Assembly: GCF_003334785.1 (NCBI RefSeq) | Contig: NZ_QOWV01000092.1 | Strand: one strand, 5' to 3' | DNA from: Escherichia coli | GTDB lineage: Bacteria; Pseudomonadota; Gammaproteobacteria; Enterobacterales; Enterobacteriaceae | DNA: 248 nucleotides | In this document: piece after piece, positions 1 to 248 of the stretch | Position numbering within the stretch: the first letter of the stretch is position 1 | Layout: each line of letters starts with the position of its first letter | Notes under the pieces: model-generated | Told to the model about the DNA's origin: nothing | What the model saw: the letters and a program-made list of their open reading frames with translations, nothing else | Database searches by the model: none | Program-made: the position numbers and the translations under genes

Positions 1-248
1 TTTCATCTCCAGCTTTTCCAGAACAAGCTTTCGCAATGGTAAATTTTGATCCAGTAAGCACGGTTTTGGCCTTTTCGCCATTCTGTTGGCTCGGTTATTA
101 GCATCAACAGCTTTGTAATAGCGTCTGCCCCGATTACGCTGAACTTCACGTGAGATCGTCGAAGGACTGCGATTCAGCGCAGTAGCTATCGCACGAATGC
201 TCATTTTGGCTGACAAACCAGCTCGTATCTCCTCGCGCTCAGACAGTG
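1..248 (-). CDS. insI: IS30-family transposase (InsI-like), internal fragment, partial at both ends. Codons occupy plus-strand 1-246 read on the minus strand; 247-248 are the last two bases of the preceding codon. The start codon lies beyond position 248 and the stop codon beyond position 1.
   Basis: Seen in sequence: the reverse complement read from its third base gives 82 codons with no stop. Plus-strand frame 1 stops at taa 40-42, frame 2 at tga 47-49, and frame 3 at tag 99-101. Established knowledge (recalled, not aligned): the peptide matches the N-terminal region of E. coli IS30 transposase InsI, roughly residues 60-142 of the ~383-aa protein, with no mismatches I can detect from memory. 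Confidence 0.92.
1..248 (-). mobile_element. Internal segment of an IS30-family insertion sequence (IS30 itself or a near-identical relative). Terminal inverted repeats and target-site duplications are not in the window.
   Basis: Inference from the CDS call: the IS30 transposase gene fills most of the ~1.2-kb element, so a window wholly inside the transposase gene is wholly inside the IS. No IS ends are visible to confirm whether the element is complete. Confidence 0.88.
133..201 (-). other. Helix-turn-helix DNA-binding motif within the transposase N-terminal domain (peptide SIRAIATALNRSPSTISREVQRN).
   Basis: Seen in sequence: a short amphipathic helix-like stretch (SIRAIATALN), a turn (RSPS), and a second basic stretch (TISREVQRN). 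Established knowledge: IS30 transposases carry N-terminal HTH motifs used for recognising the inverted repeats and target sites. Exact motif boundaries are my estimate, not a domain-search result. Confidence 0.6.

Follow-up and report, generated by a model that had tools for sequence, protein, structure and literature searches.

Sequence data and studies on IS30 date back to the 1980s. Members of its family are recognised by an N-terminal helix-turn-helix (HTH), a C-terminal DDE domain within a single long ORF, inverted repeats of about 20-30 bp at the ends of the element and a target duplication of 2-3 bp. The reference copy, IS30A of Escherichia coli K-12 MG1655 (NC_000913.3, 270541-271761), is 1221 bp long, carries insI1 (b0256, "IS30 transposase", 383 aa), ends in inverted repeats of 26 bp that are mismatched at 3 positions, and is flanked by a 2-bp target duplication, AC. 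This copy itself sits inside IS911A, splitting insN into two fragments (NC_000913.3, 270206-272190). The inverted repeats of the IS3, IS256 and IS30 families are described as bipartite, and the same three families are said to transpose by copy-out/paste-in (PMC7780238); in IS30, it is the N-terminal domain that binds the subterminal site (Nagy 2004, as cited in PMC7780238).

The DNA analysed here, referred to as the window, is a single stretch of 248 bases with a G+C content of 48%. Its reverse complement is found without a single difference within K-12 IS30A (nt 241-488, 248/248 bases), so that the window represents nt 179-426 of the insI1 CDS, i.e. residues 61-142 of the 383 residues of InsI1 together with two bases of codon 60. 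An earlier note on this DNA had proposed that the whole window lies inside an IS30 transposase gene, and had named a near-identical match to IS30 (E. coli insI) in minus orientation as the supporting outcome of a database search. This proposal was borne out in full, as megablast aligned the window in that orientation at 100% identity over 248/248 bases (E 4e-126) in its top matches to complete E. coli genomes, and the CDS features lying over the megablast matches are named "IS30-like element IS30 family transposase" in RefSeq. The features of the reading frame are as follows.

Positions 1 to 246, minus strand: insI codons 61-142, 82 complete and stop-free, an exact match to nt 181-426 of the K-12 insI1 CDS
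Positions 247 to 248, minus strand: last two bases of codon 60 (Thr60) of insI, starting at CDS nt 179 in codon phase 1

By an ISfinder-style rule, copies count as isoforms of an insertion sequence when their nucleotide identity to its reference exceeds 95%, and the window agrees with the reference IS30 at 248/248 bases. The window almost certainly represents an inner segment of an IS30 copy (1221 bp, IS30 family) on the minus strand, encoding InsI residues 61-142, and no result speaks against this reading. A different IS30-family element, such as IS30H or another isoform, could be imagined as the source, since relatives whose genes are organised alike show about 92-93%, 88% and 75-76% nucleotide identity in this segment; yet the window agrees with the K-12 reference IS30A at every base, and the nearest distinct elements differ at no fewer than 17 positions, leaving this origin an exceedingly small chance.

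Minus-strand frame 3, read from window position 246 to 1, is stop-free over 82 complete codons and is the sole open frame of the six, each of the remaining five containing stops; its translation is LSEREEIRAGLSAKMSIRAIATALNRSPSTISREVQRNRGRRYYKAVDANNRANRMAKRPKPCLLDQNLPLRKLVLEKLEMK. The uninterrupted minus-strand frame reported in the earlier note was hence recovered as described, with positions 247-248 finishing the preceding codon. A fully open frame alone is weak evidence in a sequence of this length, because 9-20% of randomised sequences also have one (8.8% of mononucleotide shuffles of the window and 19.8% of first-order Markov simulations). These frequencies among randomised 248-base sequences would speak for a chance ORF in a non-coding region, but this explanation is dismissed outright by the exact match to an annotated and experimentally studied gene, by the Pfam HTH_38 match at E 5e-17, and by a strong codon-position bias of substitutions. 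The minus-strand frame is a real coding frame, as follows from the exact IS30 identity, the HTH_38 domain and the third-codon-position substitutions in three relatives.

These relatives, compared over the window-equivalent segment, were a Citrobacter freundii plasmid copy (about 92-93% DNA and 98% protein identity to the window), Klebsiella IS30H (88% and 96%) and a copy on plasmid 5 of Aeromonas salmonicida (75.6% and 89%). Substitutions in the minus frame fall at codon position 3 in 16 of 18 cases for C. freundii, 25 of 30 for IS30H and 46 of 60 for A. salmonicida, and the minus-strand frame is the only one that is open in all three. Position-3 bias and a protein identity exceeding DNA identity in the three relatives are the signature of purifying selection on the minus-strand insI frame. 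At the sequence level, the same substitution pattern argues against conserved coding on the opposite strand.

Two further ORFs in the window, one of 48 aa on the minus strand (3 to 149) and one of 21 aa on the plus strand (36 to 101), were considered as genes and rejected, as stops interrupt their frames both in the window and in every relative, and the substitutions ignore them. In the K-12 IS30A region, the 21-aa ORF, which has an ATG start, is the tail of an antisense ORF of 59 codons (nt 1929-2108 of the fetched region, minus strand) that starts at TTG and ends inside the window; this longer ORF showed no conservation, the corresponding frames carrying stops in each of the three relatives.

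PLSDB lists no gene under the IS30 relative on plasmid 5 of A. salmonicida A449 (NC_009350.1, 91131-91376), where the homologous frame is open. In Klebsiella pneumoniae pBckp021-1, an "IS3 family transposase" CDS (216-554 of the fetched region, plus strand) shares 81 bp, on opposite strands, with the 3' end of the CDS for the IS30H transposase (474-1625, minus strand); probably an IS3 gene was disrupted by IS30H, and the called ORF runs into the IS30H end.

Profile searches with the 82-residue fragment and with full-length InsI, the latter from an identical reference copy, gave the following domain content.

Positions 133 to 246, minus strand: HTH_38 (Pfam), fragment residues 1-38, E 5.1e-17
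Positions 1 to 132, minus strand: basic linker from the HTH to the catalytic core, InsI residues 99-142, with the start of NF033563 and a weak HTH_32 match
InsI residues 6-41: weak HTH_38-like motif, E 0.014 in the full-length protein
InsI residues 58-98: strong HTH_38, E 1.3e-18 in the full-length protein
InsI residues 90-173: weak HTH_32, E 0.0013 in the full-length protein
InsI residues 229-320: rve (DDE integrase core), E 6e-14, beyond the window

Full-length InsI scores 277.1 bits on the NCBIfam IS30 model transpos_IS30 (NF033563), far above the cut-off of 80, whereas the fragment alone reaches 21.7 bits, which lies below the cut-off because the model begins only at InsI residue 89. The fragment is strongly basic, with a pI of 11.15 and 20 Lys and Arg against 8 Asp and Glu residues. 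A search of PDB sequences with InsI at E up to 0.01 returned no match. Of the traits of the IS30 family, the conserved N-terminal HTH (HTH_38/H-HTH2) is present in the segment encoded by the window, and the DDE core and the inverted repeats are located outside the 248 bases.

The conserved HTH encoded by the window is the motif that Nagy and co-workers reportedly named H-HTH2 in 2004. In that work H-HTH2 was reportedly essential for inverted-repeat binding, and HTH1, located upstream, is said to have been tied to hot-spot targeting. By calculated mass, InsI residues 1-150 amount to 17.0 kDa and the whole 383-residue protein to 44.28 kDa. Residues 61-142 fall within the 17-kDa N-terminal fragment (residues 1-150), and it follows that the window encodes most of the module recognising the element's own ends. 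The present analysis shows the sequence identity, the reading frame, the domain content, purifying selection on the frame and the place of the window in the element; that this segment binds DNA, and how the element transposes, is drawn from the literature or inferred by us. In an intact InsI, the N-terminal domain would recognise the subterminal part of the 26-bp terminal inverted repeats, while the C-terminal DDE (rve) core, encoded beyond the window, would cut and join the ends, and transposition is expected to proceed by copy-out/paste-in through an IR-IR junction or circle intermediate.

If the window belongs to an intact IS30, the element would measure 1221 bp with an uninterrupted 1152-nt ORF, its IRL (sense strand, TGTAGATTCAATTGGTCAACGCAACA) ending 240 bp beyond window position 248 and its other end lying 733 bp beyond window position 1. 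We also weighed whether the window might instead stem from a truncated, interrupted or otherwise defective remnant, with no intact mobile copy. Such remnants do occur among the matches: some plasmid matches cover only query positions 71-246, 94-248 or 202-248, and 177 of the 3,928 matching E. coli records have no place covering at least 80% of the window. However, all 248 bases are present here, uninterrupted and 100% identical to the reference, and in most matching records the full-coverage match lies under a full-length annotated transposase CDS. Truncated IS30 remnants are a minority of copies, and we regard a defective source as quite improbable.

Megablast matched the window in 3,532 of 5,426 complete E. 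coli genomes, which places IS30 in about two thirds of them, at 7,335 places, 6,300 of which are chromosomal and 1,035 on plasmids; 3,882 of the 3,928 matching E. coli records match at 99% identity or more. In PLSDB, 1,109 plasmids matched, with hosts from Escherichia, Citrobacter, Enterobacter, Klebsiella, Salmonella, Raoultella, Shigella, Aeromonas, Serratia and other genera. A phage origin of the window was considered and rejected, as none of 50,697 phage records matched. The earlier note had further credited the window with placing a copy of IS30 at this locus. The IS30 part of this statement stands, but the locus part does not, since flanking DNA is absent from the window, which has 7,335 matching places in E. 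coli; being wholly internal to the element and identical to thousands of copies, it singles out neither the host replicon nor the insertion site.

In E. coli SK1144 (NZ_AP018784.2, 862231-866107), a full IS30 has a truncated IS600 transposase on one side and a further partial transposase on the other, and the sat gene, for a serine-protease autotransporter toxin, is located some 600 bp away; these surroundings form a nest of insertion-sequence debris that is typical of a pathogenicity-island border. On plasmids of Raoultella, Klebsiella and Serratia, IS30 remnants are found that are broken within the segment equivalent to the window.

For the strand opposite to insI, an antisense RNA that lowers translation of the IS30 transposase has been published (Arini et al. 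1997, as cited). It is conceivable that the plus strand of the window is functional, either as part of this antisense RNA-C, transcribed from promoter P30C and reducing transposase translation, or as an antisense ORF. Our literature search for the exact positions of RNA-C, P30C, HTH1 and HTH2 returned only citations of Arini 1997, Nagy 2004 and Stalder 1990. A consensus scan of both strands of IS30 gave no sigma-70-type promoter and no intrinsic terminator, and a relaxed scan of the antisense strand gave only three sigma-70-like matches at 8 of 12 positions, among them IS30 539->512 and window positions 75-104 (plus strand). Matches of this quality are at chance level, although they could be related to the published P30C; transcription from the match at IS30 539->512, which lies immediately upstream of the window, would run into it. 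Besides the blank promoter and terminator scan, the evidence against a plus-strand function comprises the lack of any Rfam match over the whole of IS30 at E up to 1, a plus-strand fold no better than that of shuffles (z +0.53), stops in all plus-strand frames of the window and its relatives, and substitutions that follow the codon pattern of the sense frame. Taking the published RNA and the weak sigma-70-like matches together with these results, we consider a function of the plus strand unlikely. A structured RNA in the window was rejected on the Rfam result and on fold z-scores that are ordinary on both strands (sense z -1.30).

An overlap with RNA-C, if true, would add an already known feature to the transposase gene without replacing it, and the segment would then carry both coding information and a regulatory RNA. 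We see but a very slim chance for the broader case in which the window comes from a remnant or recombinant that produces the N-terminal HTH domain by itself or joined to another protein part, perhaps serving as a truncated DNA-binding regulator of IS30 transposition, or in which it overlaps RNA-C.

The reading as an internal piece of an IS30 copy leaves nothing new in the window, the content of which is already known; it is an exact copy of long-known IS30, in agreement with the view of the earlier note that this is a known element and no novel system. As a repeat or mobile element, the window can be masked and struck from any list of candidates for new biology. Compared with IS30 itself (K-12 IS30A, insI1/b0256, InsI), it has the same 248 bases, the same strand relationship and the same reading frame, with zero differences. 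Klebsiella and Citrobacter plasmids carry IS30H and further IS30-like elements that share the gene and the frame at 96-98% amino-acid identity, but differ from the window at the DNA level (88-93% nucleotide identity), nearly all differences falling at third codon positions. In the more distant relative on plasmid 5 of A. salmonicida A449, the HTH core SIRxIAxALNRSPSTISREVQRN is nearly unchanged, whereas the divergence is found mostly in the linker after the HTH.
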